A DNA stretch of 64,000 bases from Thermoplasmata archaeon (GCA_020348445.1 CP070751.1:4070164-4134163); one strand, 5' to 3'; positions 12,773 through 57,549 are shown, counted from the first letter of the stretch. Notes: generated by a model not told the origin, from the letters alone. Numbers and translations are program-made.

Positions 12773-13216
12773 GGGGCCGCCGAGCCCTGAGGTTTAAGAA
12801 ACAATTATTTTACATTTATAACCGAAGGGCCAAGGCTAATAAGAAGATTCAATTGCCGAGCCATTAAGCTTAAGACATAATTGAATTAGAATTATAACTT
12901 AATGGCAAGGCAACTAAGAAATTTGAATTGTCGGGTCTTTCAGCTTAAGAACCGATTTTTATGTAATTATAACTGAAAGACAAGGCTATGTATAAATGGG
13001 GCCGCCGAGCCCTGAGGATTAAGACACCATTGTATTACAATTATAACCGAGGGGCCAAGGCGTATAAAATGGGGCGGTCGAGTCTTTCAGCTTAAGAACC
13101 AATTCTTATATAATTATAACTGAAAGACAAGGCTATGTATAAATGGGGCCGCCGAGCCCTGAGGATTAAGACACCATTGTATTACAATTATAACCGAGGG
13201 GCCAAGGCGGCCCCAC
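12773..13216. repeat. Tandem array of six 57-58 bp hairpin units (period 73-76 bp) abutting the tRNA-Pro 3' end
   Basis: Units start at 12779, 12855, 12930, 13004, 13077 and 13151. Consensus GYCGR-[9-nt arm]-nTTAAGA-N15-wTTATAA-[complementary arm]-(C)AAGGC. 12964-13061 is identical to 13111-13208. Confidence 0.92.
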
Positions 13217-13241
13217 GTATTAATTTAATATAAAATTTAAG

Positions 13242-13371
13242 TGGGGCCGCCGAGATTTGAACTCGGGTATCCAGCATTTCGTATCATTTTCGAAACCGAG
13301 TTATTTTCCGGGAACTCGGTACTCAACGAAACCCCAAGCTGAGAGGATTGTCCAAGCTACCCTACGGCCCC
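13242..13371 (-). tRNA. tRNA-Pro(GGG) with a 55-nt intron at 37/38 (intron 13277-13331)
   Basis: Reverse complement folds as GGGGCCG/CGGCCCC-A acceptor stem, D-loop AGCTTGGACA, anticodon stem TCAGC/GCTGG with loop TT-GGG-G|T, T-arm CCGAG-TTCAAAT-CTCGG. Relaxed bulge-helix-bulge at the intron ends. Confidence 0.9.
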
Positions 13372-13403
13372 AGTGGGGATATGGGCATGGAATAGAATGA
13401 AGG

Positions 13404-13417
13404 TTTATACCTTTTTT
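13404..13417 (-). promoter_or_regulatory. BRE/TATA promoter of tRNA-Pro
   Basis: Minus strand reads AAAAAAGG-TATAAA about 33 nt upstream of the mature tRNA 5' end. Confidence 0.5.
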
Positions 13418-13468
13418 GATTGATGGTGATTTAGAAAAGAGCAATTAGTATGTAGATATCATTTTATT

Positions 13469-14242
13469 TTATAGGTCAAGCCATCGTGTAAACTTCCTCT
13501 CATTAATCACGACATCGTCCTCTCCAACCATGTCAAAGGGATTCTCCAGATGATCCTGAATGTTATCCAGGGAAACCAGGATAATGCTGAAAAGAACAGG
13601 CATTACAAAGAACATGGCAAGGGGAATATCCCTTGATAAGTTGGCGAAATAAGGTCCATAGAAGATGGGTAGGATGTAGGTGAAGATCTTGCTGTAGGCC
13701 CTGAGGGTTATCGGGGTGCGGTATTGATATATATGTTTCATGCTCTCAAAAGACTCCAGCATCTTGCTTAAAAACTGATTGGTTCTCGATACTCCTCCTG
13801 GGGGCATGCCGCGGTTACCACTTTCCTTGATAAAAAGTGATAGCTCAGAGAACTTGGAATAGATAAATCTCTCCTCTGCTGCACTTTTCTCTGGTTCCTT
13901 CATGAACATCTGGCGAAGTCCTCCAAGAAGTTCTCTTAATATACGTTTTAGCTTCCTTTGATATTTAGCTTCTGAGTTGGGGACCCAGTCTCTTGAGGCA
14001 AAGTAAATAGCCCTACCATATGCCTTGAGGGAACCGTAATAATTAAGGGACCTTTCCCTGCGTGTATATGCCGTGCTTATGGAGAAAACTATGGGAAAGA
14101 CGACGGCTATACCGATTAAAGTAAGGGGAAAATCGGCATATATCTCATAATGCATGCATAAGAATGTGGAGATAACAGACAAAATCGCTACTGCAATGGT
14201 ATTTGGAGTGAGTATCAATATAATACTTTTTATGATCCTCAT
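13469..14242 (-). CDS. Bestrophin-like (UPF0187) membrane channel protein
   Basis: TM segments; VVFPIVFSISTAYTRR and LDNIQDHLENPFD..GEDD resemble the bestrophin I...IE.PFG signature. Confidence 0.7.
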   Translation of the reverse strand: MRIIKSIILILTPNTIAVAILSVISTFLCMHYEIYADFPLTLIGIAVVFPIVFSISTAYTRRERSLNYYGSLKAYGRAIYFASRDWVPNSEAKYQRKLKRILRELLGGLRQMFMKEPEKSAAEERFIYSKFSELSLFIKESGNRGMPPGGVSRTNQFLSKMLESFESMKHIYQYRTPITLRAYSKIFTYILPIFYGPYFANLSRDIPLAMFFVMPVLFSIILVSLDNIQDHLENPFDMVGEDDVVINERKFTRWLDL

Positions 14243-14401
14243 ATTTCTGAAATATCCATCTTATATATTATAGTTTGTTATAATCGCTGAAAAACGATAA
14301 TAAAGCAACAATGTATTCTTTCAAGTAATATTATATACTAAAGTCTCTATAAACAAACAATACAATAACTAAGCATTTGGCGAGGAGACGAATCTAGCGA
14401 A

Positions 14402-14905
14402 ATGATCAAGGATTGCGGTGTGCAGATGCTCGATTATGAAGATATAAAACATATATCAAAAATATTATCTCGGATAGCGTTGGTTGGCACAATTATCTCC
14501 ATTGTCATATTCCTCGTGACAAATATTTTGTTTTTATTGATAATTGGCATATTGATAAGTTTTGAGCCCTTGATGTCATTATGGATCCGTATTATTCTAT
14601 TTCCAGATTCAGAATATGTTTTTATTTCGTTTGAAGATTTTAAATTATTTTCTAAGATCTTAATTTGGGTTGCGATAGTGGGAACCATATCTTCAATTAT
14701 CATATTCCTTCCTTCGGGTCAGTATGATTGGATGGCATTGATGATAGGAATTAGTATCGCACCGTTTCTAGTCGCTGTTGCCTTCTTTATATCCTGGGAT
14801 CCTTTTTTGTTCTATAAATTCTTTATAAAGGAAAAACGTGAGGAAAGTGTGGCAATCAGAGTGGAAAAGTATCGTCTTCAAAAGCAGAAGAGATGGCGTA
14901 AATGA
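14402..14905 (+). CDS. Hypothetical membrane protein with an internal duplication
   Basis: Two similar halves: EDIKHISKILSRIALVGTIISIVIFL and EDFKLFSKILIWVAIVGTISSIIIFL. Confidence 0.55.
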   Translation: MIKDCGVQMLDYEDIKHISKILSRIALVGTIISIVIFLVTNILFLLIIGILISFEPLMSLWIRIILFPDSEYVFISFEDFKLFSKILIWVAIVGTISSIIIFLPSGQYDWMALMIGISIAPFLVAVAFFISWDPFLFYKFFIKEKREESVAIRVEKYRLQKQKRWRK

Positions 14906-14937
14906 TTTGATTATTCAAATATCTACGGTAATAGCTC

Positions 14938-15281
14938 ATGAAAAATAGAACCCTGAAAATCATGATGGGAGGAGGAATTACTCTTATTATTTTAGCGGGC
15001 GCAAGCGGAGGTCCTGCAATAATTCTCTTACCATTATTGATTATAGGTTTGGTATTGATGGTGGTTTCCCTTTGGATCATCCTAATCGGGTTTAACAAGG
15101 TGATATTTTTAGCGGGTACCATTATCGGGGTTATTGGTTTACCTTAGCATTCTTCTAGGGCAATGAATACAGTTGCACGGCAATCATTATCATTGGTTTA
15201 GGAGTTATCATCGGATGCATAGCAATACTTGTTGGTTATTCAAATATCGGGGATACTACTGGGTGGGACAAGGATCTCTGA
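14938..15281 (+). pseudogene. Probable disrupted small membrane protein
   Basis: The 69-aa hydrophobic ORF stops at 15147. Hydrophobic coding continues in another frame (LAFF*GNEYSCTAIIIIGLGVIIGCIAILVGYSNIG...KDL*, TGA 15279-15281), implying a frameshift plus an internal stop. Confidence 0.45.
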
Positions 15282-15370
15282 CTGTTTTTTTATAATGGGG
15301 GAGTAATTTGTTCACATAAAGTTAAATAAGGGGCTAAAACTATGAGGTATTAAATCCATTGATTTAAAGG

Positions 15371-15868
15371 GTGTTTGTTATGTTATATTGGAACAGGTGC
15401 GTAATCAAAGACATAGAAACTGATCCCAAAATTCCGGGATCTGAAGAATATTTCAATGTCGATTTTTTAGATTTTAAACCCCATTTTAATTTTAAGGTTT
15501 ATGCTAGATCTTGTAACAAGTTTGAGGATGCAAGTGGTTGTTTTGATTATAAGCGATTCAAACCGGGAACCGAGATCGTTGTTAGATTAGCTGGAGAGCT
15601 TCACATGTACAGAGCACTTAAACTAGAGAAAGTGGATAAAAACAAACATTGGGAAGAAGGGTTTGTTACCATGATCAACTCAAATGGTGATAAGAATTAT
15701 TTTCTAAGAGGGTATGTAATAGGAAGAAATCCTGAGGATTATGGGAGGGAAGGTAGGGTGATGAAAGCCAATAACTTATATGTTTATTTCACCGATATAA
15801 ATAACAAAACAAAAAAAGGTGATAATGTTCTTATTTCACTTACTGGTATCCTTGATTTAAAAGAATAA
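15371..15868 (+). CDS. Hypothetical protein
   Basis: 165-aa ORF (ATG at 15380 is an alternative start). Two halves end in similar K.G..(I/V).(V/I).L.G.L strands, possibly a tandem beta-barrel. Confidence 0.55.
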   Translation: MFVMLYWNRCVIKDIETDPKIPGSEEYFNVDFLDFKPHFNFKVYARSCNKFEDASGCFDYKRFKPGTEIVVRLAGELHMYRALKLEKVDKNKHWEEGFVTMINSNGDKNYFLRGYVIGRNPEDYGREGRVMKANNLYVYFTDINNKTKKGDNVLISLTGILDLKE

Positions 15869-16002
15869 CTTCAGATGTACAATTCAAAGAGAGATAACAA
15901 TAAAGCTTTAAATTTATCAGGGGACGGGGGATCATTTGAATAGTAAAATTTGTTGAGTAGGTATGTGAAATCCTAATAGGATAACATAAAAGAAAATAAT
16001 GG

Positions 16003-16935
16003 ATGGTGTCTATTGTGAATCGAGACAGGATCATTAAGATAATTAAGCTGGGAAGAATCCATTTCGTGGTAGGTGGTTTTTTACTCTATTGTCTTGGGGC
16101 GCTGTATGCCATGGTAACAGGTACTGACTATTCATTGCTTAGATTTATTTTGGGGTACGCTGTTTTGTTTCCTGCCCATCTCTCTGTCTCGTATAGCAAT
16201 GATTACTTCGATTACAAGGCTGACAAATATAACAGGTCCACAATGTTTTCTGGTGGAAGTGGTATACTTGTTAATTATCCCGAATTAAGGAAAGTTGCCC
16301 GAAATTTTTCCCTTTTTCTGATTTTTTTATCCATTATCTTGGCTTTGTTTTTCTTAATGGTATTTTCTTTCCCATTGATCTTTTTAGCATTTGTTATTTT
16401 TGGCAATCTTTTAGGATGGTTCTATTCAGCTCCTCCAGTTAGGCTGGTTTACCGCAAAATGGGAGAATTGGCTACAGTTCTCACGGCGGGGATATTACTC
16501 CCTGGGATGGGCTATTTTGTTATGAAGGGCGCATTCGATATTTCTTTTCTCATATTTGCCCTTCCACTGATGCTTTATAGTATGTTCTTCATTCTCAGTG
16601 TAGAGATGCCTGATATGGAGGGTGACATCTTAGGTAATAAACAGACCATGATTGTTCGAAAGGGTCGCGCCTTTGGTTTTACAGTGATGGCTTTATGTCT
16701 CATTTTATGCACATTCTATTATATCATAATGGCCATGCTGGTTCCCGCGACCACGAGCATTGGATTTTTTGTAATTGGTTTGCTTTCCATTTTACCCCTT
16801 TATATCGGTCTTGTGGGATTAATAAAAAGACCAAATGAACAAAGAGTGGCTTCAAAACTAACAAATAAAGGGGTTGCATCCCTTTTCTTATTTGTCTTTT
16901 TTGTAGATATTTATTATTTAACCCTACTGTTATAA
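16003..16935 (+). CDS. UbiA/MenA-family prenyltransferase
   Basis: SNDYFDYKAD and EMPDMEGD Asp-rich motifs, SGGSG, WFYSAPP; 8-9 TM segments. Confidence 0.85.
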   Translation: MVSIVNRDRIIKIIKLGRIHFVVGGFLLYCLGALYAMVTGTDYSLLRFILGYAVLFPAHLSVSYSNDYFDYKADKYNRSTMFSGGSGILVNYPELRKVARNFSLFLIFLSIILALFFLMVFSFPLIFLAFVIFGNLLGWFYSAPPVRLVYRKMGELATVLTAGILLPGMGYFVMKGAFDISFLIFALPLMLYSMFFILSVEMPDMEGDILGNKQTMIVRKGRAFGFTVMALCLILCTFYYIIMAMLVPATTSIGFFVIGLLSILPLYIGLVGLIKRPNEQRVASKLTNKGVASLFLFVFFVDIYYLTLLL

Positions 16936-16991
16936 TATATTCATTTAATTAGTAATTTATAAGAAATAATATAATACCTATGTATTTACTC

Positions 16992-17423
16992 TTAATCGGG
17001 TACATTATATTTTTTATTAGCATAGAGAAAACCGAAGTTGATTGCCCTTTCTTTTGTGGCTTTCATATGATGGTGACCATGGGCGTTTAATATTCCTTTC
17101 ATATAGGCACTTTTAGGTATATATTTAATCTTTATTCGCCTGTGAAAAAAGATATCGTGAACCATAAAATAACCAATACCGTATGCTATAATCCCTATAC
17201 CAATCCAGAAATAGATATTAAAGCCCGAGAGAATTCCATATAAAATAAAAATGAATGCTAGGACACTGAAGAATAGAGAGAAGATGTCATTTTTCTGCAA
17301 TCTATGTTCCTTGGGTCTATGATGGTCCTCATGGAGCACCCAAAGAAAACCGTGAATTACAAATTTGTACAGGAAGCAGACAAATAATTCCATGAATAGG
17401 AACACCACGATTACTGTGATCAT
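16992..17423 (-). CDS. crtZ: Beta-carotene hydroxylase (fatty acid hydroxylase superfamily)
   Basis: His boxes HGFLWVLHEDHH, QKNDIF, Y..VHD.FFHRR, AH.HHH. Confidence 0.85.
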   Translation of the reverse strand: MITVIVVFLFMELFVCFLYKFVIHGFLWVLHEDHHRPKEHRLQKNDIFSLFFSVLAFIFILYGILSGFNIYFWIGIGIIAYGIGYFMVHDIFFHRRIKIKYIPKSAYMKGILNAHGHHHMKATKERAINFGFLYANKKYNVPD

Positions 17424-17684
17424 ATAGATTGTCAGTGTAAATACATCTATATTCAGTCAACCAAGGGTAAAGTGCATCAATTATTAAAGGCTCTTTATTA
17501 CTTCAAATAAAAGTGACAACGGGCATAAAATCGATCCTGACCCGCAATTATTTAATAAAGTATAGTGTTTGTATTTCAGCTCTTAACCTAAATCTATTTT
17601 AACAATGTTGGTATATTCCTTAAAAAGCTTAATTGCTTATCATTTATCCTATTATAATCAATAAATCACAAGGAGATTAAACCC

Positions 17685-18362
17685 ATGATAAACTACTTGA
17701 TAATCAACGTCCTCATCATAATATTTCCATTATTGTTTTCCTTTGAAAAGAGAATCAGTTATTACAAACATTTCAAGCCGCTTTTTATTTCAATACTGAT
17801 TGTGGGAGGCTGTTACATAATATGGGATGCAGTTGCAACTTCCCGCGGGGACTGGTGGTTCAACCACGATTACGTTATGGATTTCGATATAGTGGGGCTG
17901 CCAATTGAGGAAATAATGTTCTTTGTGACGGCACCTTATTCATGTATATTTATCTACGAGTCGCTTCTATATTTTTTAAACGATAGGCAATTTAATTATG
18001 ATACGAGAGTCTTTATTGTTCCATCATTAATTTTTATTGTGGCAGGTAGCATGTTCTACTATCAGAACTACACCGCAACTGTACTTTTCTCCTGCGCTCT
18101 GTTTTTCTTTTTAGCTATGCTCGCATATCCAAATATGCTGAAGTCAGTTATCTACTGGCTTTACATAATCATTGTATTCATACCCTTTTTCATCATGAAT
18201 TACCTACTAACATCAATCCCAATAGTGCTTTACAATTCAGAAGCCATTTGGAACATTAGAATAACCACGATTCCCGCTGAGGATTTCTTTTACAACTTCG
18301 CAATGCTCTCTTTTTACCTAATGGTATATCTGTTTTTCAAAGGTAGAGTTGCTAAAAATTAA
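17685..18362 (+). CDS. crtY: Lycopene cyclase domain protein (fused CrtYc/Yd type)
   Basis: Two membrane lycopene-cyclase repeats, GLPIEEIMFF and TIPAEDFFYNF; YIIWDAVA...GDWWFN. Confidence 0.85.
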   Translation: MINYLIINVLIIIFPLLFSFEKRISYYKHFKPLFISILIVGGCYIIWDAVATSRGDWWFNHDYVMDFDIVGLPIEEIMFFVTAPYSCIFIYESLLYFLNDRQFNYDTRVFIVPSLIFIVAGSMFYYQNYTATVLFSCALFFFLAMLAYPNMLKSVIYWLYIIIVFIPFFIMNYLLTSIPIVLYNSEAIWNIRITTIPAEDFFYNFAMLSFYLMVYLFFKGRVAKN

Positions 18363-18454
18363 TTATCTCATTAATGTGCTTATATGCTATACAAAGTTAC
18401 CCTACACAGTTACAACGTAAACATTTTATATACATCTTTTATTTACCCTCCTTA

Positions 18455-19945
18455 ATGCATAGAGGGGAGGTAATAATCATAGGGGCCGGCTTTTCCGGCC
18501 TAGCCACCGCAGCCCTCCTAGCAAAACAGGGATTTACCGTCACGGTGGTGGAGAAGAATGAACAGCCAGGGGGCAGAGCCTCTGTATGGAAGGAAGGTGG
18601 CTTTACCTTCGATATGGGCCCATCTTGGTACCTAATGCCGGATGTCTTTGAAAGGTTCTTTTCAGAATTTAACAAGAAACCAGATGATCTCATGGAACTG
18701 GTACAGCTCAATCCATCGTACCGTGTGTTCTTCGGTCCGAATGACACCCTGGATATTTCAGCAGATCTCAACGAGAACCTTGCCACTTTCGATGAAATGG
18801 AGGAAAACGGTGCCGAGAAGATGAAGAAATACCTGGAAAGTGCAAAATATCAGTACGATGTGGCTATGAACCAGTTCATCTACAAGGATTATGTACATCT
18901 CACAGACTTCTTTAATCGCAAGCTCGTTGTTGAGGGTACCAAGCTGCACATATTCGACAAGCTGGATCATTATGCTCAACGCTTCTTCGAAAATCCAAGG
19001 ATAAGGAAGATTCTCGAGTATAACATCGTGTTTCTCGGCGGCACCCCTTACAACACTCCTGCACTTTATGCTCTTATGTCCCATGTTGATTTCAACCTTG
19101 GTGTGTGGTATCCAATGGGGGGCTTGGGAAAGCTGGTGGAGGCAATTTACGACCTAGATCTATCCCAGGGTGTTAATTTCAGGTTCAACGAGGCTGTGAC
19201 TAAGATAGAAGTTGATGAGAAGATTGCAAGGAAGGTGGTGACCGAAAAGGACACCCTCAATGCTGATATAGTTGTAGTGAATGCCGATTATGCCTATGCA
19301 GAAACCCATCTGATTCCCAAAAAGAACCAAACCTATCCTAGGAAGTACTGGGATGGCAAGGCCATTGCGCCCTCATCACTGCTGTTCTTTTTAGGATTGA
19401 ATAAAAAGCTTGACAATCTGATTCATCATAACCTTTATTTCCACCCTAAATGGGAGAAACATTTTGATACCATCTTTAAGAAGCCTTCTTGGCCCAACGA
19501 GCCTTCATACTATGTTTCTTGCACATCCAAGACAGATTCAACAGTTGCCCCCAAAGGTGGAGAGAATATCTTTATTTTAGTTCCTATTGCGCCCGGTCTT
19601 GAGGATACTGAGAAGATAAGAGAGAATTATTACAATAAAATTATAGGGCATCTGGAAAATCTAATAGGGGAAAACATAAGGGATGCAGTTGTGGTTAAGA
19701 GGTCTTTTGCCCATAATGATTTTTCTAACCGATATAATGCCTATCAGGGAACGGCTCTTGGGTTCGCCCATACGTTGCGGCAGACCGCAATATTCAGGCC
19801 AAGACATAAGAGCAAGAAGGTGAAGAATCTGTATTATACTGGTCATTACACACATCCTGGGATCGGCGTTCCCATGGTGATAATTTCATCTCAAATAGTA
19901 AGCGAAGAGATAGGTAGGTATCATGCCAAACAGAACCATATATAG
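18455..19945 (+). CDS. crtI: Phytoene desaturase
   Basis: VIIIGAGFSGLATA FAD motif, GFTFDMGPSWY, C-terminal LYYTGHYTHPGIGVPMV. Start moved from 18374 to ATG 18455, which follows a TTTATATA box. Confidence 0.92.
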   Translation: MHRGEVIIIGAGFSGLATAALLAKQGFTVTVVEKNEQPGGRASVWKEGGFTFDMGPSWYLMPDVFERFFSEFNKKPDDLMELVQLNPSYRVFFGPNDTLDISADLNENLATFDEMEENGAEKMKKYLESAKYQYDVAMNQFIYKDYVHLTDFFNRKLVVEGTKLHIFDKLDHYAQRFFENPRIRKILEYNIVFLGGTPYNTPALYALMSHVDFNLGVWYPMGGLGKLVEAIYDLDLSQGVNFRFNEAVTKIEVDEKIARKVVTEKDTLNADIVVVNADYAYAETHLIPKKNQTYPRKYWDGKAIAPSSLLFFLGLNKKLDNLIHHNLYFHPKWEKHFDTIFKKPSWPNEPSYYVSCTSKTDSTVAPKGGENIFILVPIAPGLEDTEKIRENYYNKIIGHLENLIGENIRDAVVVKRSFAHNDFSNRYNAYQGTALGFAHTLRQTAIFRPRHKSKKVKNLYYTGHYTHPGIGVPMVIISSQIVSEEIGRYHAKQNHI

Positions 19946-20747
19946 GATTTTTAAAAAAGGCAGCAGGACGTACTTCTACAACAGTATCTTCTTTCCAAAA
20001 GAAAAGAGAGAGGAGGTCTTTGTGCTATACAGCTTTGTACGCAAGGCGGACAACATGGTGGATTCCTTTCCGCAGAGAATCGATGAATTCTACAAATTAA
20101 AAAGGGATTATAAGAGGGCCAGGGCAGGTGAGGTTACTGGGGACATCGTGGTGGATTCCTTTTCCGAGCTTGTGGACAAAAAGAACTTCGAAGAAAAATG
20201 GGTTACTTCATTTCTGGAATCAATGGAGATGGATCTGACCAATAACAAGTATGAAGATTTTTGTGAGTTGGATAAGTACATTTTCGGCTCGGCAGAGGTC
20301 ATAGGACTTTTTATGGCTAGGATTCTGGATCTTAGAGATGAGGCATTGCCTCATGCCAGGATACTAGGAAAAGCCATGCAGTATATCAATTTCATAAGGG
20401 ATATACCCGAGGATCTGACTCTAAATCGAAGGTACATACCACTTTCGGAGCTTAGGAAAAAGGGTCTTTATTCATTGGAATATGATGAAGTGATGTTGAA
20501 CACAAGCGGTTTTAAGGATCTTGTAAGGGATCAGATCGATATATACTATGGCTGGCAAAATTATGCAGAGAGAGGCTTCAAATATATACCAAAGCGGCTG
20601 CTAATCCCCATAAAGAACGCCTCTGAGATGTACAAATGGACTGGCAAGATCATATACAGGGACCCAATGGTCGTATTTAAGAAGAAGGTCAAACCCTCAA
20701 AAACAAGAATAGTCCTTAATATAGGCTATAATACAATAACAGCGTAA
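19923..20747 (+). CDS. crtB: Phytoene/squalene synthase
   Basis: LYSFVRKADNMVD, SMEMDL, GSAEVIG, LGKAMQYINFIRDIPED..L.R.Y.P; overlaps the crtI stop. Confidence 0.92.
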   Translation: MPNRTIYRIFKKGSRTYFYNSIFFPKEKREEVFVLYSFVRKADNMVDSFPQRIDEFYKLKRDYKRARAGEVTGDIVVDSFSELVDKKNFEEKWVTSFLESMEMDLTNNKYEDFCELDKYIFGSAEVIGLFMARILDLRDEALPHARILGKAMQYINFIRDIPEDLTLNRRYIPLSELRKKGLYSLEYDEVMLNTSGFKDLVRDQIDIYYGWQNYAERGFKYIPKRLLIPIKNASEMYKWTGKIIYRDPMVVFKKKVKPSKTRIVLNIGYNTITA

Positions 20748-20873
20748 TTTAAATTCTAATCAATTCTTTCTATATATAAAAATGAACCTCTAATATCAAA
20801 AGGCAATAACATTTAATATACATTAAACTGCAAAGAATTATAGGCCTGTAAATCATTTGCAGGGAGAATATGT

Positions 20874-21848
20874 ATGCAATCCTTCGAAAAACCCATTCTG
20901 GTGTGCAGCCGATGCCTAGGTTTTGATAACTGTCGCTTCAATGGTCAGATATTATACAACGATCTCGTTAACAGTTTAAAGCCATATGTGGAATTTAAAA
21001 CACCCTGCCCTGAGACGGATATCGGTCTGGGTGTTCCCAGATATCCTGTGAGAATTATCCAGGATAAAGGTCAAAATACAATGTTTCAACCGTCAACAAA
21101 ATCAGATTTTACAGGGAAGATGAATTCCTTTGTCAAAGAATATCTAAATAATTTAAATGCGGTTGATGGCTTTATTTTGAAATCCAAATCACCATCCTGT
21201 GGTATTGGCGATGTCAAGGTTTATAAGGATGTAGACAACCCTGCAAATTTTTCAAAGGGCGACGGCCTTTTTGGTGGCGAGGTTAAAAGAAGATTTTCAG
21301 GCAAAGCTGTGGAAGACGAGATGAGGCTTTCCAATCCCAGGATCCTGGACCATTTTTTAAAAAAGATATTTACCCTTGCTGCATTCAGAAAGGTAAAAAA
21401 GGCAAATAATATAAAGGCACTAATCGAATTGCAGACAAAAAACAAGCTTCTTTACATGTCTTACAACCAAAAGGAATTGAAGAATCTGGGTAATATCGTT
21501 GCTAGCCACAAAAAGAAAGATAAGGGAGAAATCCTAGAAAAATACGAGAATCATCTGGATATTGCGCTGGCCAGAGGACCAACATATAAATCAAACATCA
21601 ACGTGCTTCATCATGCTCTCGGGTATGTATCAGAGAATATATCAAGGGAGGAAAAGACCTTTTTTTTAGATACAATACAGATGTACAAGGAGGATCGAGC
21701 TCCATTCGAATCCTGCCTCTCTCTCATTTACTCATGGGTGCTAAGATTCGATGTGGAATATTTAAAAAATCAGACATTGTTCCATCCCTATCCTGATGAG
21801 CTTCGAAAGGGATTCGAGCCTGATCGCAGGAGGGAATTCTGGGGATGA
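20874..21848 (+). CDS. DUF523/DUF1722 (YbgA/YbbK-like) protein
   Basis: SRCLG...CRFNG, CPE..IGLGVPR, FILKSKSPSCG, G.GLF, C-terminal YL..Q..F.PYP..L. Confidence 0.85.
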   Translation: MQSFEKPILVCSRCLGFDNCRFNGQILYNDLVNSLKPYVEFKTPCPETDIGLGVPRYPVRIIQDKGQNTMFQPSTKSDFTGKMNSFVKEYLNNLNAVDGFILKSKSPSCGIGDVKVYKDVDNPANFSKGDGLFGGEVKRRFSGKAVEDEMRLSNPRILDHFLKKIFTLAAFRKVKKANNIKALIELQTKNKLLYMSYNQKELKNLGNIVASHKKKDKGEILEKYENHLDIALARGPTYKSNINVLHHALGYVSENISREEKTFFLDTIQMYKEDRAPFESCLSLIYSWVLRFDVEYLKNQTLFHPYPDELRKGFEPDRRREFWG

Positions 21849-22747
21849 GGATAGGATACCCTTGCATTAACAGAAGCATTGGATGTAAGAGCAGCAAGAC
21901 CTTCAGGCTTAATAGCTATTCAGAAACCAGACTCAGGGAAATCGTGAATAACAATCTAAAATGTCTGATGAAAATATTGAAATACAACAAGAAAAACCAT
22001 ATGCTCTTCTTTCGCATCACCTCTGATCTTGTTCCCTTTGCCTCTCATCCTGTATGTGAATTTGACTGGCAAGGGTATTTCTCCAACGAATTTGGGTCCA
22101 TAGGTGATTATGTGCGGGAAAATGATATGAGAATATCCATGCACCCTGACCAGTTTAACGTGCTCAATTCAAAAAGAAAGGATGTGGTTGAAAACAGTGT
22201 AAGAGAGCTTATTTATCATGCAGAGGTTCTCGATACAATGGGCCTCGACAGAACCCACAAGATACAGATTCATGTAGGGGGGATGTACAGGGATAAGAAA
22301 GGGAGCATGGCCAGATTCCAAAAAAGGTACAAAAGCCTGGATATTAGGATTAAAAAAAGACTCGTGATAGAAAATGATCATGGCATGTACAATACATCGG
22401 ATTGCCTTGATATAAGTGCAAAGACTGGTATACCGGTTTTATTTGATTTTTTTCATGAGAGTCTAAATCCATCTGGTATGAGTTTAAAAAAATCTCTTAA
22501 ACTTATAGAGGGTACCTGGAAAAGAGTTGATGGAATACCCATGGTGGACTACAGCCATCATCATTCAAATCCCGCTTCAAAGAAGCATGCCGAAACCATT
22601 AAAATCCGTGACTTTCATAAATTCCTTGTTTATACGAGACCCTATGACATGGACATCATGCTTGAGATAAAGGACAAGGAGAAAAGCGCAATTCGGGCCG
22701 TTGAATTGGCAAGAAAGGACAGCAGATTTTTAATTGTCCATAGGTGA
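21845..22747 (+). CDS. uvsE: UV DNA damage endonuclease
   Basis: RIGYPCIN, FFRITSDLVPFASHP, RISMHPDQF.VLNS, IHVGG, LVIEND, D.FH, DIMLEIKDKE. Confidence 0.92.
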   Translation: MRIGYPCINRSIGCKSSKTFRLNSYSETRLREIVNNNLKCLMKILKYNKKNHMLFFRITSDLVPFASHPVCEFDWQGYFSNEFGSIGDYVRENDMRISMHPDQFNVLNSKRKDVVENSVRELIYHAEVLDTMGLDRTHKIQIHVGGMYRDKKGSMARFQKRYKSLDIRIKKRLVIENDHGMYNTSDCLDISAKTGIPVLFDFFHESLNPSGMSLKKSLKLIEGTWKRVDGIPMVDYSHHHSNPASKKHAETIKIRDFHKFLVYTRPYDMDIMLEIKDKEKSAIRAVELARKDSRFLIVHR

Positions 22748-23202
22748 TATATATGGAAATAGATAAAATACTTGAGGATATAAGGGATCTTTTTAAATCC
22801 CAGAGATTTGCAGTTGTGGCGACCTCCAATGGGGGGCATCCTTACACGAATATAGTGTCCTTTTCATATTCAGAGGACCTAAAGTCCATACTTTTTGTGA
22901 CAAAAAGAAACACGAGGAAGTTCAGGAACATAAGCAGTGAGCCAAGAACCTCTGTATTGGTGGACAACAGGAAAAACAGTCCTTCGGATCTTGCTGAAGC
23001 TTGTTTTGTTACCATCCTAGGTAAATCCAAAGAAGTTCAATTGGATAAAGATGAAAAAATTAAAAAGTTCCTTAATTTACATCCCTATATGAGTGATTTT
23101 ACCAACGAACCTGATTGTGCTATTATTGAGCTGGTAGTTGACAGGTTTTTGTTTGTCAGGAATTTTCAGGATGTAGTGGAAATTGAAGCAGAGCAAATGT
23201 AA
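22744..23202 (+). CDS. Pyridoxamine 5'-phosphate oxidase-like FMN-binding protein
   Basis: FAVVAT...G.PY...V.F, T...TRK..NI...P..S.L.DNR split-barrel pattern. Confidence 0.8.
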   Translation: MIYMEIDKILEDIRDLFKSQRFAVVATSNGGHPYTNIVSFSYSEDLKSILFVTKRNTRKFRNISSEPRTSVLVDNRKNSPSDLAEACFVTILGKSKEVQLDKDEKIKKFLNLHPYMSDFTNEPDCAIIELVVDRFLFVRNFQDVVEIEAEQM

Positions 23203-23397
23203 GTTACACCTCTTAATTTCCCAAAAAAAAGACGTGATAAATTACCAGTTTGTAGAATAATAAATATTATATATCATCTCCAATTATGGATCATTATTTC
23301 CTTATCCACCACAACCTGATACCACATTTTCCCAAAATACTTATAGAATTAAGTCTTTGCCTATACTATATTTGTGACGATATTTTAGAGGGATAGC

Positions 23398-24567
23398 ATG
23401 CCTAGAATCGATGAGAAAAAACTAATTAATATGATAAAGGAAAAAGGACAATCCTGGAAGGCAGGCAGGACATCACTTTCAGAGCTTCCTTTCGAGGAGC
23501 AGAAAAAGCGCCTAGGACTCGCCGTAAAAAAAGAAGATTTGGAAAAGATGCGTCTGGAAATCAAGGCGGCTGTTAAGGCTTTCTCGTTTCCACAGGAATG
23601 GGATTGGAGAAATGCACGCGGGAAAAACTGGACCACATCCATAAAGGACCAATCCTCCTGTGGATCATGCGTTTCATTTGCCGTTTGTGCAGTTATGGAA
23701 TCCATGATGAAGATCGAGGAGGATAAACATGATTTGAGCATAGACCTCTCTGAAGCGCATCTCTTCTTCTGTGGATGTGGAAGATGCTGCAATACCGGCT
23801 GGACCTTTGAGCCCGCACTCGATTATGCCAAAGGCGACGGCATATCTGATGAAGCATGCTTCCCCTATAGGGCCACAGATACCAACTGTAACGAAAGATG
23901 CAGTGATTGGGATAAGAGATCCTCGAAAATAACAGAATGGAAGAAGATAACAAATGTGAGCGAGAGAAAGAACGTGCTCTCAAGTGTAGGACCGCTTGTG
24001 GGAGGAATGGCTGTATATGAGGATTTCTTTTCCTACCGAGGCGGAGTTTACAGGCACGTTACTGGAGATTTTGCTGGATATCATGCAATTGCAATCGTGG
24101 GATTCAGCGAGAGCGAGCAGTGTTGGATCTGCAAAAACAGTTGGGGTTCTGGCTGGGGTGAGAACGGCTGGTTCAAGATAGGTTATGGTGAATGCGATAT
24201 TGATACTACATTCCCAATGTACAGCGTCACGGGGATCGTTCCTGCACCTCCGCAACCTCCACAACCTGAATGTCTCATAGCCACTGCGGCTTATGGTTCT
24301 GTATTGTCACCTGAAGTTCAGTTTTTAAGGGACGTGAGGGACAACATCGTAAGAAAAACAGAGAAGGGAAACAAGTTCATGGACGACGCAGAATACGTCT
24401 ACTACAAATTCAGCCCTCAGGTCGTTTACCACATGAAAAGGAGTAAAAACTTTAAAAAGTTTGTTCGTTGGACAGTGGTTGCCCCCTTCGTCTATTCTGT
24501 GTACGGGATTATGAGGGTATTAGTGGATGACGAGAGGTTGGACAAATACAACCTTGATGAAACATGA
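23398..24567 (+). CDS. Papain-family (C1A) cysteine protease with a C-terminal CFI-box-CTERM-like domain
   Basis: QSSCGSC (oxyanion Gln and catalytic Cys), HAIAIVG (His), KNSWG..WGE.G (Asn); PAPPQPPQP linker then CLIATAAYGS...EVQFLRDVRD. Confidence 0.9.
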   Translation: MPRIDEKKLINMIKEKGQSWKAGRTSLSELPFEEQKKRLGLAVKKEDLEKMRLEIKAAVKAFSFPQEWDWRNARGKNWTTSIKDQSSCGSCVSFAVCAVMESMMKIEEDKHDLSIDLSEAHLFFCGCGRCCNTGWTFEPALDYAKGDGISDEACFPYRATDTNCNERCSDWDKRSSKITEWKKITNVSERKNVLSSVGPLVGGMAVYEDFFSYRGGVYRHVTGDFAGYHAIAIVGFSESEQCWICKNSWGSGWGENGWFKIGYGECDIDTTFPMYSVTGIVPAPPQPPQPECLIATAAYGSVLSPEVQFLRDVRDNIVRKTEKGNKFMDDAEYVYYKFSPQVVYHMKRSKNFKKFVRWTVVAPFVYSVYGIMRVLVDDERLDKYNLDET

Positions 24568-24889
24568 AGAAAAGAATTTTGGTGATCATCTGAAAATTTT
24601 ATCTGAGGACGAAGAGTCCATAGAAATAGCCTGTAGCGAGGAATTCACAATCACTTTGGATTCAAATCCAACCACAGGATATGTTTGGAAGGCGGAATTC
24701 GATGGGAATTATATTGAGCTCCTTGGAAAAACGTTTGAGCAACGATCAAGTGGGATCGGCTCAGGGGGAAAGGAGAATTTCCAATTTAAGGGGGTGAAAG
24801 ATGGCGAGACAAGTATTAAAATGATATGCAAAAGAACCTGGGAAGATGAACCCATAAAGACAAAATCATTCCTGGTGAGTATTAAGTAG
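24557..24889 (+). CDS. Protease inhibitor I42 (chagasin/ICP) family protein
   Basis: F.I.L.SNPTTGYVW, G.GG.E.F.F, KRTWE loops. Start at ATG 24557 overlapping the protease stop (track gave 24527). Confidence 0.88.
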   Translation: MKHEEKNFGDHLKILSEDEESIEIACSEEFTITLDSNPTTGYVWKAEFDGNYIELLGKTFEQRSSGIGSGGKENFQFKGVKDGETSIKMICKRTWEDEPIKTKSFLVSIK

Positions 24890-25081
24890 ATGAAAGGGGG
24901 TCGAAACTGGGGGTTTATATATTTTTTGCAAAAAATAGCTTTTATTTATACCATTTTATTAAACTCAGCGAAATTAAAACTCGAATATCGCAGATAACAT
25001 GTAAGAGCTATCTATTAACCAATAAATTTAAATACGTGAAAATAATTATGGTCAGGTCACCTTAAGTGTTATGGAAATAAT

Positions 25082-25307
25082 GGGCCCGTAGCTCAGCTAG
25101 GTAGAATATTATGATAAAATGGAAAAGTGTGAGCCATGAATATATTCCTAGAAAGAGCATCTGGCTTTTAACTGAACAATCTGGCGGTATAGAAAGTAGT
25201 AAGGACTAACAGCCGAGACCGGGTTTTTCGGCAGGAAACCAGGTGGTCGGGGGTTCGAAAAGTCTCGCCCCGATTGGAGCGGGAACTCGAAATTCCCCTC
25301 GGGCCCG
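25082..25307 (+). tRNA. tRNA-Lys(UUU) with three introns: 25103-25153 (20/21), 25171-25237 (37/38), 25260-25293 (59/60)
   Basis: Removing the three segments gives a 74-nt cloverleaf: GGGCCCG TA GCTC AGCTAGGTA GAGC A TCTGG CTTTTAA CCAGG TGGTC GGGGG TTCGAAT CCCCT CGGGCCC G. BHB-type structures at all three junctions. Confidence 0.88.
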
Positions 25308-25448
25308 TTTCCAAAATTCGCTGAGACGAAAGGACATGTGGTAGGAAAAGGTGTGGTGAGAAAATAGAAGTATGGTTTTGAAAAAGAGTCATGATAACAA
25401 GATTGAAAAAACGTGGGCAGATCGATTACAAAAATAGGGGGCTTGCTA

Positions 25449-25709
25449 ATGGTAGATGTCAATGTTATGTTACATGAATTGGTACCCGAGCACACACTTC
25501 TTTCTGAAGAAGAAGCTAAGAAGGTTTTAGAAGGTTTAAAGATCAAAGTGGATCAGCTTCCCAAAATAAGAAAGGACGATCCAGTTCTTAAGATTTTGGA
25601 GATGGTGGAGGGTGAAATTACGGAAGGGCGTATCATAAAGGTCACGAGGAGGAGCGAATCTGCAGGTGTGAGTGTAGTATACAGAATGGTTGTAGAGAGG
25701 GTGAAGTAA
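25449..25709 (+). CDS. rpoH: DNA-directed RNA polymerase subunit H (Rpo5)
   Basis: HELVPEH..L, QLPKI...DP, G..IK.TR.S...G....YR.V; ATG 25449 preferred over GTG 25413. Confidence 0.95.
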   Translation: MVDVNVMLHELVPEHTLLSEEEAKKVLEGLKIKVDQLPKIRKDDPVLKILEMVEGEITEGRIIKVTRRSESAGVSVVYRMVVERVK

Positions 25710-28700: not shown

Positions 28701-29303
28701 GTGGCACATGTTCTGGAGATGATCGGCGGTAAAGTTGGGGCAATGGAGGGGAGATTTGTGGACGGGACGGCCTTTTCCGGTGAGAGCGAGGAGGCCTTAA
28801 GACAGGGATTGATTTTTGCAGGTTTTAAGGACAATGGCAAGGAAGTCATGTACGATGGCAACACTGGTAGGATCATAGAAGCTGAGATTTTTGTTGGTGT
28901 GATATATTATCAAAAGCTCCATCATATGGTGGCAGGAAAGCACCATGTACGTTCACGGGGCCCAGTTCAGATTCTAACCCGTCAACCCACTGAAGGTAGG
29001 GCAAGGCAGGGGGGTCTGAGATTCGGTGAGATGGAGAGAGATTGTTTAATAGGTCACGGCGCTGCCATGGTGATCAAAGATCGACTCCTTGACGAGTCAG
29101 ATGGTACAGTCCAACATGTTTGCGGCAATACGGAATGTGGGCACATCGCATTGGCGGATAGGCAGGGCGCTCTCCGCTGTCCTGTTTGCGGGAACAACGC
29201 CAGTATCCATCCAATTCAAACGAGCTACGCGTTCAAGTTGCTTTTGGACGAGCTTCTTTCACTTGGTGTGGCCATGAGGCTTCAATTGGAGGATTTAAGA
29301 TGA
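25710..29303 (+). CDS. rpoB: DNA-directed RNA polymerase subunit B (Rpo2, unsplit)
   Basis: [28 protein letters not shown]-terminal Zn ribbon; extra CVKC...CNVC insertion near aa 670-700. Confidence 0.98.
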
Positions 29304-29488
29304 GCAAATTCAAAGCTACCCACAATTCGAGCAGGCGAGGCCCGAGTTTTTGGATGGCCGAAACTTTTTGCGAGGGTCGAGCCAGCGCAGAATCGACAAA
29401 ATTTCCGAAGAATTTTGGCGAGAAGTGCGGAGCTTTACGATGCACTGAAATGTGTCAAAAAGTTTTGGAATTGGAGGATTTAAGATGA
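29284..29488. mobile_element. 165-bp structured insert (29304-29468) flanked by 20-bp direct repeats at the rpoB/rpoA' junction; MITE/REP-like, origin unknown
   Basis: AATTGGAGGATTTAAGATGA at 29284-29303 and 29469-29488. The insert has an outer stem CCGAAACTTTTTG/CAAAAAGTTTTGG and several inner hairpins. Confidence 0.7.
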
Positions 29489-32247: not shown

Positions 32248-32250
32248 AAC

Positions 32251-44791: not shown

Positions 44792-44811
44792 AGGCTAGTT
44801 ATGGCCTTTCA

Positions 44812-47347: not shown

Positions 47348-47619
47348 TTTTTTATTGATGTTCCATGGGGGGATTCTATGCATTATACCTTCATACTCCG
47401 CCAAATTGGTTGGTTAATTGGATTTTAAACATGATATTTCGATATAATTTAAGAAAAATACTTATATCATTTATTTTATAATTACAACCTCCATACCATT
47501 TGCTTAACATGAAAATTATCGACGAGTCCATTGCAAAAGGATTATATACCTGGATAGGCTTATTAAGGATTAAACCGGCTCAGAACTTACATTTAACCCC
47601 TTCAAACTGGTGATTAGAA

Positions 47620-47961: not shown

Positions 47962-47974
47962 GACAGCTTTAGAA

Positions 47975-52882: not shown

Positions 52883-53002
52883 ATTGCGATGATAAAAATA
52901 ATAGCTACAAAAATGATTTATAATCATACTTCGCTACATCTCAAACTCAAAACACAACTGATATGAACAAGAATTTGATTACGTTTGAATGAGGAACCAT
53001 AA

Positions 53003-53551: not shown

Positions 53552-53569
53552 TGCAAAGGTGAAATCTAA

Positions 53570-54052: not shown

Positions 54053-54164
54053 ACATTTTTCCTTCAACAAAAAAGGTTATGAACACGTAATCCGATTACC
54101 CATCCCAATGGTGAGGATTGCATCCTGTACCGTGAATTGATCCTCTTTTTTCGGGGGGTAGGCT

Positions 54165-55127
54165 ATGGCAGTCTACGATGAAGAATTAATCGAATCTTTG
54201 GCAGAAAAAGCTAAAATTATCCGAAAACATGTTGTAAAGATGGTGTACAATGCGGGGTCAGGCCATCCAGGAGGCTCCCTTTCAGCTGTGGATATACTAA
54301 CGGCCTTGTATTTTCACAAATTCCTCGATTCAGGTTGTAAAAAAGGGGAGCGGGAGCCAATAATGAACCATGATCCAAAGAATCCAAAATGGGAGGATAG
54401 AGACAGATTCATACTCAGCAAAGGCCACGCCGCTCCTTCATTGTATGCCGTTTTAGCTGAATGCGGATACTTCGACAGAAAACCACTTCTTGCGTTTCTA
54501 AAGGATAAAAACGGTGAAATGTACGAGAATGTGAAGAAAGACAAGATTTTCGGAAAAGAGATGCTGATGAACTTGAGGAAGCTTGGATTTCCATTACAGG
54601 GCCATCCTGACATGAACAAAACCCCTGGTGTTGAAGCATCTACAGGATCCGAAGGTCAGGGTCTTTCCATTGGATGCGGCCAGGCATTAGCTGCGAAACT
54701 TGATAGGAAGCTCTATCATATCTTCGTCATGATCGGAGATGGGGAGATGGACTGCGGCCAGATATGGGAAGCGGCAATGTCTGCATCCCACTTTAAATTG
54801 GACAATTTGATCGCCATCATAGACAGAAACAAATTACAGCTTGACGGCCCTACCGAGCAGATAATGTCCCTAGAACCGATTTCTGATAAGTGGCAGGCAT
54901 TTGGATGGCATGTGATGGAAATAGATGGTCATAATTTTAAGGAGATTCTCACTGCCTTGGACTCCGCCAAGGAGGTAAAGGGTAAACCCACTCTTATCGT
55001 GGCTCATACTGTAAAGGGTAAGGGTGTATCATTTATGGAAGGGGCAGTGGGTTTCCATGGAAAAGCCCCGAATGAGGAGCAGTTTGAGCAGGCGATGTCC
55101 GAGTTAGGAGGGGAAAACGATGCCTGA
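54165..55127 (+). CDS. tktA: Transketolase, N-terminal subunit
   Basis: [29 protein letters not shown] motif, HTVKGKG..F.E....HGK.P. Confidence 0.92.
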
Positions 55128-56229
55128 AATGAAGATGGAAAGCCAGAGAATGGCTTTTGCGCATGCTCTGGTTGAGCTGGGACGGGAAAGGAGCGACATC
55201 GTTGCTCTAAACGCTGATCTGTCATCCTCCACTAAGACCATCGAATTCGCCAAAGAGTTTCCTGAAAGGCATTATAATTTCGGAATTGCCGAGCAGAACA
55301 TGATGAGCACGGCAGCAGGACTGGCTGCAGCTGGAAAAACAGTTTTCGTCAGCACGTTTGCTGTCTTTGGAACGGGGAGGGTGTACGATCAGATCAGACA
55401 ATCCATCGCTTATCCAAAACTGAATGTGAAGATAGTGGTAACGCATGCTGGAATCACAGTTGGCGGAGATGGGGCAACGCATCAGATCACAGAGGACATT
55501 GCCTTGATGATGGTTCTTCCCAATATGACGGTAATAGTCCCAGCTGATGCCCAGGAAACCTCAAAAGCGATAAAGGCTGCTGCAGAATATGATGGCCCTG
55601 TATGTGTCAGACTGGGAAGGGCCGATGTTCCCACCATCACTTCCGATAAGGATCCGTTCGAAATAGGCAAGGCCACCATCTTAAGAAAAGGCAAGGATGT
55701 CACCCTTATTGGCACAGGCATTATGGTATCTGTTTGTCTTGATGCTGCAGAAGTTCTCAAAAAGGAAGGAGTGGACGCGAGAGTAATAAACATGAGTACT
55801 ATAAAGCCAATTGATGAGGAGACATTGAAGGAAGCAGCCTTCCAAACAGGGGCCATTGTCACGGCAGAGGAGCATAACGTGGAGATGGGTATGGGAACAG
55901 CTATTTCAATGGTAATGGCAGAAAAAAAGCATGTTCCAATGAAGCGGGTGGGCATTCCCGATGTCTTTGGCGAATCTGGAAGTTCTGATGAACTCATGGA
56001 AAAATACGGTTTGACAGTAAAGAATATCGTAAGTGCAGCTCATGATGTTTTAAGGAGAAAGGACAAACTGGGTAGACTTCAGCGGGTAAGTAAAAAGCTG
56101 ATCAAGGGTGACAGAAAAAAGAACAGAAAAAAGGATACAAAGAAGGCCACCAAAAAAGCCACGAAAAAGGCAGAAAAAAAGACAAAGACACAGAAGAAAA
56201 AGGATCAAAAGAAGAAAAAGAAGAGGTGA
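55120..56229 (+). CDS. tktB: Transketolase, C-terminal subunit, with a Lys-rich tail
   Basis: [30 protein letters not shown]; about 45-aa Lys-rich C-terminal extension. Confidence 0.92.
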
Positions 56230-56235
56230 ATTCTC

Positions 56236-56886
56236 ATGAAGATATTTTTGGATACCGCCAATGTCGAGCATATTAGAGAGGCCAACAGCTGGGGAATCAT
56301 AGACGGAGTTACCACTAATCCCACACTCATTGCCAAGGAGGGAAGGGATTTTCGTGAGGTAGTAAAAGAGATATGCGAAATCGTTGACGGTCCCATTTCA
56401 GCAGAAGTTGTGAGCATGAAATCCGATGAAATGGTGCCGGAAGCTCAGGATCTTGTCAAGATTCACAAGAATATCATAATCAAGGTTCCCATGATGCCTG
56501 AGGGTTTGAAAACCATCAAAAGATTGAAGGAGCTGAACATCAAGACAAATGCCACATTGGTGTTTTCCCCGAACCAGGCTCTTTTGGCTGCCAAGGCGGG
56601 AGCAACTTATGTCAGTCCATTTATTGGAAGGCTCGACGACATCGGGCATGTGGGTATGGACATAATAAGGGATATTATGATAATATTTGAGAATTACAAA
56701 TTCGAGACCCAGGTGATAGTGGCCAGCATCAGACATCCCATTCATGTTATCGATGCTGCAATTGCGGGAGCGCATGTTGCCACTGTTCCCTGGCCTGTTT
56801 TGCAGAAGATGGTCAAGCATTCTCTTACCGATGTAGGTATTCAGAGATTTTTAGATGATTGGGAGAAGGTGCCGAAGTCGAAGTAA
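56236..56886 (+). CDS. tal: Transaldolase / fructose-6-phosphate aldolase family protein
   Basis: IFLDTAN, GVTTNP.LI, IKVP (Schiff-base Lys), [18 protein letters not shown]. Confidence 0.92.
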
Positions 56887-57053
56887 AAAAACAGCAGCCA
56901 GTCATGTAAATTCTTGATTTTAAATAACACCATATTGTGTCTTCTACTCAATGCCCTCCTCCTAACCCTCTCCACCCGCCCTATGTTTTTCCATAAAGAT
57001 AGATTTGTTCTTAAACAGATAGTGATAACGCTAATTTTTATAGCACAGTACTC

Positions 57054-57324
57054 CTTTAGCCCCTCAGTGGTAAAGCTGAGGTAGCTAAGCCAGGTGGCTC
57101 GTGGTCTCCCTTTGGTCGCCCACTACACCTATCTGGTCCGCTGATACAATGCCTTGGTGGTCCAGCTAGGTCCCCGTGTGACCTTCGTTCCCCACTCGCC
57201 CTGGGCTTATCTCCCTCTATGCTATAATTCGCTTAATGCTGAGGTAGATAAGCCAGATCCCGTGGTGACCTTCGGTCTCCACTTACCCTGGGCTTATCTC
57301 CCTCTATGCTATACGTCACTCAAA
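57054..57324 (+). repeat. Three degenerate 76-87 bp units upstream of tRNA-Ser, each containing a 20-nt tRNA 5'-end copy
   Basis: tRNA-like 20-mers at 57075 (19/20 to the tRNA-Ser 5' end), 57151 (13/20) and 57238 (17/20). 28-bp exact repeat CCCTGGGCTTATCTCCCTCTATGCTATA at 57199 and 57286. Confidence 0.85.
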
Positions 57325-57435
57325 GCCGAGGTAGCTAAGCCAGGCTTAAGGCGGCAGGCTCGAGCGTTTTCCTAAGGAAAACCAAGGAACCTGTTGGTGC
57401 TTTGCACCGCGGGAGTTCGAATCTCCCCCTCGGCG
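57325..57435 (+). tRNA. tRNA-Ser(CGA) with a 24-nt intron at 37/38 (57365-57388)
   Basis: GCCGAGG/CCTCGGC-G acceptor; anticodon stem GCAGG/CCTGT with loop CT-CGA-G|A; long variable arm TGGTGC-TTT-GCACCG; T-arm GGGAG-TTCGAAT-CTCCC; intron hairpin GTTTTCC/GGAAAAC with BHB-like junctions. Confidence 0.92.
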
Positions 57436-57458
57436 CTTTTAATTATTTTACAATTGTA

Positions 57459-57549
57459 GCCGAGGGTTTAAAGTGATGTTAATTTATAGGAGATTCAAGC
57501 CAGTTACCGTAAGCGAAGCGAATGGTGACGGTGGTTCGAATCTCCCCCT
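57459..57549 (+). repeat. Hairpin ending in a 16-bp duplicate of the tRNA-Ser T-arm/3' segment
   Basis: GTTCGAATCTCCCCCT at 57415-57430 and 57534-57549; stem GGAGATTCAAGCCA/TGGTTCGAATCTCC; GCCGAGGG at 57459 is the inverted copy of the tRNA 3' strand. Confidence 0.8.

Follow-up and report, generated by a model that had tools for sequence, protein, structure and literature searches.

The stretch of 64,000 nt from a Thermoplasmata archaeon analysed here (GCA_020348445.1 CP070751.1:4070164-4134163; hereafter the window) holds short sequences that fold back on themselves at four sites: 3' of a tRNA-Pro gene, 5' and 3' of a tRNA-Ser gene, and between the RNA polymerase genes rpoB and rpoA'. An earlier note on this DNA had proposed that these sequences form a candidate tRNA-anchored system, written by an active, trans-acting process. 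The four sites themselves are real, since their tRNA-derived words exceed chance (nine versus 1.5 expected and three versus 0.3 expected) and they are strongly folded, with every unit in the window folding well below its shuffles. However, they do not form one system but belong to at least four sequence families with unlike ranges: family A comprises the units 3' of tRNA-Pro and was found in one genus only, family B is the T-arm fold-back 3' of tRNA-Ser, family C is the rpo insert and occurs in seven genera of the class, and family D makes up the leader of tRNA-Ser. We refer to the genome holding the window as G000 and to its four congeners as G001–G004; comparisons at the class level covered 41 Thermoplasmata genomes, i.e., the five of the genus and 36 others. 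The 5.16-Mb "single contig" of G000 is a metagenome-assembled genome (MAG) consisting of 354 contigs joined by 100-N linkers, and the window sits in one contig of 133.6 kb, the end of which is also the end of the window. ARAGORN with default settings detected no tRNA in the window and, with introns allowed, found both genes and mistyped both. Rfam matches in the window at E ≤ 1 were limited to tRNA and tRNA-like (tmRNA) models at the two tRNA genes, and the fold-back units matched no Rfam family (curated covariance models, E ≤ 1). Literature searches yielded no relevant published description of such repeats.

The tRNA-Pro gene (13242–13371, minus strand; tRNA-shaped Rfam match at 13239–13371, minus strand) carries a 55-nt intron at the canonical position and, by our own reading, the anticodon GGG, which ARAGORN mislabels. 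An AT-rich spacer of 26 nt (13216–13241, minus strand) separates its 3' end from the first inverted arm. Across five orthologous Pro loci this spacer is exactly 26 nt long while its sequence varies, and a T-run within it probably terminates the tRNA-Pro transcript. Six family-A fold-back units of 73–76 nt each follow on the minus strand (12773–13215): u1 at 12773–12849, u2 at 12850–12924, u3 at 12925–12997, u4 at 12998–13070, u5 at 13071–13144 and u6, next to the spacer, at 13145–13215. At the far end lies the decayed remnant of a seventh unit (12752–12772, minus strand), in which AAGGGCCAATGC resembles the unit end AAGGGCCAAGGC. The units share a covarying 9-bp stem that encloses a 29-nt loop, reading CTTAAGA-N15-ATTATAAC on the plus strand. 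The 3' end of tRNA-Pro (CTCGGCGGCCCCA, minus strand) is copied exactly in u1, u4 and u6, with two mismatches in u5, and is only partly kept in u2 and u3; an inverted copy, partial or full, is present in each unit. Counted with up to two mismatches, the tRNA 3'-end word GGGGCCGCCGAG occurs nine times in the window compared with 1.5 expected, a number that none of 100 shuffles reached, and six of these nine matches fall within the Pro locus.

The number of units at the Pro locus varies among relatives. In two metagenome contigs and three genomes the locus always follows the same ATPase gene and contains one, two, two plus one, three or six units. Within G000, u3 and u4 together form with u5 and u6 a tandem duplication of 147 nt that is 97% identical, so growth of the array was partly plain tandem duplication. 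Because u1 and u2 of G000 match the outermost and the innermost (tRNA-proximal) units of G002, respectively, u3–u6 arose on the tRNA side; the units shared with this relative lie far from the tRNA, and the outer units of the locus are decayed. In G002, the locus (G002:C34:12300-13520, reverse strand) contains two tRNA-Pro genes, one of them an intron-less Pro(GGG). The second has an intron and a 3' end (CCAGTGCCCCCA) of the tRNA-Trp type, followed by a unit whose far arm is of the Pro type; this gene looks like a chimera formed by recombination between modules of different tRNAs. On the other side of the tRNA-Pro gene in the window, about 12 kb of genes (13469–25700), partly of low GC content (0.34–0.35), reach to the rpoH/rpoB block and encode UbiA, lycopene cyclase, phytoene desaturase and synthase, UvdE, and a papain-like protease with a chagasin inhibitor. 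In G004 only about 1 kb separates tRNA-Pro from rpoH/rpoB, so the block was either inserted in one of the two lineages or deleted from the other.

Family A is defined by its fold. Thirty-three copies align over 52 nt around an invariant TTAAG...A.AA loop frame, and the 9-bp stem shows 92% pairing and 69 double-change cells, a value as high in none of 500 shuffles and not approached by any slide of the alignment. On the motif strand (CTTAAGA..ATAAC) there are 12 G.T mismatches versus one A.C mismatch, and in nine copies tandem GA/AG replaces two stem pairs; this asymmetry, together with the tandem GA/AG, indicates that folding of one strand, as RNA or single-stranded DNA, is conserved. In a few copies the loop is reversed with respect to its stem, a change made at the level of DNA. 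Comparison of the motif strand with GC skew (24/40) is void because G000 is composed of 354 joined contigs. The family-A model has 65 matches in G000 and 24–44 in each of the four congeners (33 in G001, 24 in G003) but none in the 36 other genomes of the class, and an exact 20-base family-A pattern was matched only twice among 185,579 species genomes, in one MAG classified as Methanomassiliicoccales (CP070739.1) and one classified as Thermoplasmata. Of the 20 family-A loci that adjoin a detected tRNA, every one is on its 3' side, and 18 are antisense to it. Several apparent orphans in fact adjoin intron-split tRNAs missed by the detectors; about 14 copies are truly tRNA-free and have a twin-hairpin form, and one tRNA-free copy occupies an intergenic site that is empty in G001–G004.

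The second tRNA gene of the window, tRNA-Ser (57325–57435, plus strand; Rfam), contains an intron and by our own reading has the anticodon CGA. It is preceded by three family-D leader units rather than two (57072–57147, 57148–57234 and 57235–57321, plus strand). Each unit opens with the tRNA-Ser 5' end (a copy of its first ~20 nt), which is followed by a small GC hairpin, then the inverted copy and finally a spacer; the 16-mer occurs three times compared with 0.3 expected. The leader units carry the GCTGAGG of a paralogous tRNA-Ser, at a position where the local gene has GCCGAGG, and in the best local alignment (69 nt) they are 89% identical to the unit of that paralogue at G000:2568447. They were therefore imported rather than templated locally, which documents movement of units between paralogous tRNA-Ser loci and limits the earlier proposal of locally generated arms to a part of the cases. 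A TATA-like box, TAATTTTTATAG (57032–57043, plus strand), stands ~31 nt before the outermost pseudo-5' end and is conserved ahead of the orthologous tRNA-Ser in G003; the orthologues in G001 and G003 lack the leader units, with the promoter box retained. On the 3' side, the family-B module (57436–57549, plus strand) starts with a 23-nt spacer and continues with an inverted acceptor piece, GCCGAGGG (57459–57466), an AT-rich stretch, an inverted T-arm (57489–57502), a hairpin (57503–57529) and a direct copy of the T-arm (57530–57549). Directly after it, at 57627–58293, lie a small open reading frame and a PIN-domain gene (57796–58293), probably a toxin-antitoxin pair of the VapBC type. C-rich low-complexity tracts (CCCTCCTCC..CCACCC; G/A-rich on the opposite strand) were observed at 56940–56985 of the window, at one further locus (L036) and in the tails of orphan copies. 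They accompany tRNA flanks as well as the tRNA-free twin-hairpin elements, and one orphan shows three to four tandem ATAGGCCACGAYGGNGGGGG.

Between rpoB and rpoA', the structured insertion with a long target duplication was confirmed. Exact 20-nt copies of AATTGGAGGATTTAAGATGA bound a family-C element of 165 nt (29304–29468, plus strand, sense to the rpo operon; model match at 29323–29411). The first copy (29284–29303, plus strand) comprises the last rpoB codons, the TGA stop and a ribosome-binding site (RBS)/ATG motif, and the second (29469–29488, plus strand) supplies the RBS and ATG of rpoA'. The insert in G000 has an extra internal piece of ~58 nt that is not in the G001 copy; an inverted arm, looked for by eye and unscored, is not evident. 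The core of the insert is common to elements 3' of tRNA-Thr and tRNA-Gln. The rpoB/rpoA' junction is compact in G002 and G004 (ATGA overlap) as well as in five outgroups, whereas G000 and G001 each have one unit there and G003 has two, the filled junctions having target copies of 16–20 nt that preserve the rpoB stop and the rpoA' start. This distribution identifies the insertion as a gain inside the genus, and the intergenic orphan site of family A is likewise a site newly gained within it. Relatives thus differ in whether units are present and in how many, which shows that units have been gained since the genus diverged and supports this part of the earlier note.

Family-C copies elsewhere follow the same layout. 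Upstream of an mvhD/FlpD-like gene in G000 (G000:C1:2995750-2995950; N-terminus ..KILAFLCNWC), an element is enclosed by a pair of 39-nt copies of the first codons of that gene, and only the copy that runs on into the gene comes with an RBS and GTG start. In the consensus fold GAGCAGG pairs with CCAGCGCAG, and the pairing continues into a stem of 7 bp that varies in nearly every copy; a pairing between a T-run and an A-run also covaries, and seven of the 14 pairs are covarying in total. Families A and C both have conserved, covarying folds, and in family A selection acts on one strand. Family C is present in 13 of the 41 Thermoplasmata genomes, with up to 27 copies per genome. Its elements in distant genomes are again flanked by direct target copies (11–45 nt), and 4 of 20 loci taken from those genomes hold a tRNA gene whose 3' end the element abuts. 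An orthologous insertion shared by two related genomes, G024 (locus L083) and G035 (locus L089), has flanks that are identical within each genome (45/45 and 40/40) but differ at eight sites between them. The flanking copies at the rpo junction show the same pattern, being alike within a genome. The flanking copies consequently evolve in concert, which either slipped pairing stabilised by the fold of the element or repeated excision and re-insertion would bring about. Families can also nest, as seen in G001 (G001:C1:~199650-200030, loci L039/L033), where a family-C element lies inside the loop of a family-A core beside tRNA-Arg.

The tRNA-end grammar seen in the window extends well beyond these loci. 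We compared the last and first 12 nt of each tRNA with its own flanks, using the flanks of other tRNAs as controls and, for the 3' end, a threshold of at least 11 of 12 nt within 400 nt downstream. The own 3' end is recopied downstream of 21 of 62 tRNAs compared with 7 of 370 mismatched controls, and the own 5' end upstream of 17 of 62 compared with 5 of 370. After most tRNAs with a recopied 3' end, the inverted 3' copy begins 26–28 nt beyond the gene, and the outer stems of the units reproduce the acceptor helix of the adjoining tRNA. A dense block of ~22 clustered tRNAs outside the window (G000:C1:4640571-4643566) has no self-derived flanking copies; it may be the tRNA array of a mobile element. 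The tRNA-end copies include trailer DNA and lack CCA, and the inverted arm pairs the discriminator base. A reading as primer-binding sites for a tRNA primer was rejected, as the complement of CCA is missing, unless CCA is encoded in the gene. By our own count from match lengths, about 27 of the 62 tRNA matches are over-long; introns are therefore frequent, in agreement with the description of these tRNAs as unusually intron-rich. The suggested seeding of introns by the same process found no support, as the introns contain no self-derived fragments above control: the longest words that they have in common with their own exons are no better than those in common with exons of other tRNAs.

With moderate confidence, we interpret the elements of the window as at least four families of small (~55–165 nt), gene-less, strongly folding repeats that are non-autonomous and mobile or duplicative, of the kind represented by repetitive extragenic palindromes (REP) and miniature inverted-repeat transposable elements. 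Units would be inserted right at gene ends along with a duplicate of 12–40 nt of the end concerned, such that the gene stays whole; those of families A, B and D additionally bear the gene end in inverted form, which makes the unit a long hairpin. Insertion presumably occurs at the DNA level, since the copies include untranscribed or unprocessed trailer and lack CCA. As no integrase was found among the candidates tested, host replication or recombination probably carries it out rather than a dedicated integrase, by template switching or slipped pairing at hairpins and T-runs. The single-strand fold would be the thing that is propagated or selected, and arrays would grow by further insertion beside the tRNA in addition to ordinary tandem duplication.

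Several points weigh against this interpretation. No excision product, no empty/filled polymorphism within one population and no enzyme were seen. Between G000 and G001, many family-A modules are orthologous and have been preserved well; this, along with the fixed 26-nt spacer, agrees more with selection for a function in the host than with selfish spread. The arms match more than ten different tRNAs, which the proposed mechanism does not explain. Part of the presence/absence pattern could reflect precise loss between direct repeats. Finally, G000, G002, G003 and G004 are fragmented MAGs, in which unit counts of the arrays may be mis-assembled.

Known systems resemble the repeats in some respects and depart from them in others. 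REP sequences, bacterial interspersed mosaic elements and REPINs are extragenic palindromes mobilised by RAYT (Y1 HUH) transposases. The present elements are similar in being short, gene-less, imperfect hairpins that cluster after genes, with compensatory changes in their stems and one relevant strand. However, they have no conserved foot of the GTAG type and occur in tens rather than hundreds of copies, their arms copy the end of the neighbouring gene, long target copies flank the units, and the RAYT-like gene of G000 was not found in the repeat-carrying G001 and G003. Integrative elements that target tRNA genes, and the accretion arrays of cis-mobilizable elements, their integrase-less derivatives, share with our units the tRNA gene end as a target, its restoration by a duplicated end, and tandem stacking with copies that resemble attachment (att) sites, but the units measure ~100 nt rather than kilobases, affect more than ten tRNA targets at both ends, contain inverted arms and have no linked integrase. 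Tandem inversion duplications, which are made by snap-back template switching, have the same direct-inverted-direct layout of short local sequence around a palindrome, whereas the central hairpin core here is a conserved family across loci and genomes. In contrast to CRISPR arrays, no identical repeat alternates with unrelated spacers; conserved pieces lie scattered through the units, and the parts that vary form paired stems. Insertion sequences of the IS1634/IS1549 type generate long direct repeats of variable length (8–514 bp) for which there is no accepted mechanism (PMC2266710). The target duplications of family C are likewise long and variable (11–45 nt), but its elements are ~90 nt long and non-coding, terminal inverted repeats were not seen in the aligned copies, no search for them having been made, and an IS1634-type transposase was not found in 10 of the 13 carriers.

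The alternative that survives best regards the units as functional RNA modules kept by the host, in which mimics of the acceptor stem or T-arm serve as cis signals (for RNase P or tRNase Z cleavage, termination or insulation) or as antisense to the tRNA end. We consider it rather doubtful as the explanation of the elements; nevertheless, host function is compatible with their being repeats and is a serious rival rather than an exclusive one. Precedents are the t-elements of plant mitochondria, tRNA-like acceptor/T-arm mimics beside genes that are documented as processing signals and may be recognised by RNase P and RNase Z (PMC1920247). The copying of the acceptor helix by the outer stems, compensatory stem changes at orthologous loci, the single folding strand to which the G.T/A.C asymmetry and tandem GA pairs point, and a spacer that holds 26 nt while its sequence drifts would all be expected of such modules. 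The strand favoured by family A is, however, antisense to the tRNA, a conserved promoter was not seen by eye, and a T-run separates the tRNA from the module. The units also differ from t-elements in forming arrays and in their polymorphic insertions. Pairing of the discriminator base by the inverted arm, copied trailer and the missing CCA speak for copying at the DNA level, and the loop-flipped copies, tRNA-free copies, insertion polymorphisms and decay of outer units are all at odds with purely functional modules.

A dedicated trans-acting enzyme, be it an integrase, casposase, reverse transcriptase or RNA ligase, that writes cassettes at the ends of RNA genes and may seed introns, as the earlier note had inferred, appears unlikely to us. 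Site-selective gains that spare the gene, the position of older units distal to the tRNA, and the identity of the flanking copies, which repeated excision and re-insertion would maintain, are in its favour. Yet none of the tested candidates (Cas1, RVT_1, IS1634, Y1) co-distributes with the repeats. Cas1 (PF01867) was found outside the genus in 12 genomes of the class but in none of G000–G004 (0/5), and integration of the casposon or CRISPR type was rejected on this ground and because target copies of 11–45 nt are not of fixed length. RVT_1 was not found in G000–G002, G012, G013, G016, G024, G025, G035 and G036, i.e., in the first three genomes of the genus or in most carriers of family C; this result, together with copies that include trailer DNA and lack CCA, led us to dismiss insertion by reverse transcription. 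The IS1634-family transposase (NF033559) was discounted as a mobiliser, as it does not co-distribute with family C (not found in G000, G001, G003, G012, G013, G016, G024, G025, G035 and G036). Y1_Tnp is present but unspecific, occurring also in 13 of the 36 genomes without family A. A RAYT-like Y1 protein of 324 aa is encoded at G000:1865749-1866720 and has no homologue in G001 and G003, both of which carry family A; with the gene this patchy, RAYT was rejected as well. No family-A-like hairpins were seen around the Y1 transposase genes of G000 in four regions inspected, two of which contain a contig join. Recombinase genes are not among the neighbours of the sites in the window, which are genes for a type II secretion system-type ATPase, carotenoid enzymes, transaldolase and PIN proteins. 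The variable length of the target copies and introns without self-derived fragments are further evidence against a dedicated enzyme.

Integrative plasmids and viruses classically leave partial tRNA 3' ends downstream of tRNA genes. The copies described here resemble such traces and might be att scars of tRNA-targeting elements that were later deleted; tRNA fragments are among the subjects treated in PMC9897764. This origin is very improbable given the size of the units (55–165 nt), their conserved folds and lack of gene remnants, the number of tRNA species affected (more than ten, at 5' as well as 3' ends), the occurrence of the same element at ends of protein genes, and the absence of recombinase genes next to the window sites. 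We give equally little credence to purely local by-products, arising at each tRNA through snap-back or template-switch inverted triplication and slippage with no transfer between loci: the 147-nt duplication in the Pro array and the layout of direct and inverted copies fit this origin, and ordinary duplication, named earlier as the alternative, does account for part of array growth, but a 29-nt loop motif and a family-C core common to unrelated loci and genomes already contradict it, as do tRNA-free copies and newly colonised sites, such that it could survive only as array expansion after arrival.

Beyond the classification as non-autonomous repeats, it is possible, though not what we would expect, that Thermoplasmata harbour an insertion route not previously known, based on either a new enzyme or a hairpin-driven host pathway. 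Such a route would place structured elements of ~100 nt at gene ends, copy a variable target of 11–45 nt (in some families also in inverted form) and keep the copies identical. Within the genus, most dispersed tRNA genes would have received from it hairpins that mimic the acceptor stem and may have become functional RNAs. If the repeats are what we propose, insertion that spares the gene at its end and tailors the arms to the tRNA would fall outside known schemes of transposition and integration. The rpoB/rpoA' junction with zero, one or two units and arrays of one to six units would then offer natural before-and-after sites for studying the mechanism. The process would also bear on how tRNA genes acquire fragments and chimeric ends, such as the tRNA-Pro body with a Trp-like 3' end in G002, and the units themselves could prove to be hidden small RNAs or processing signals.

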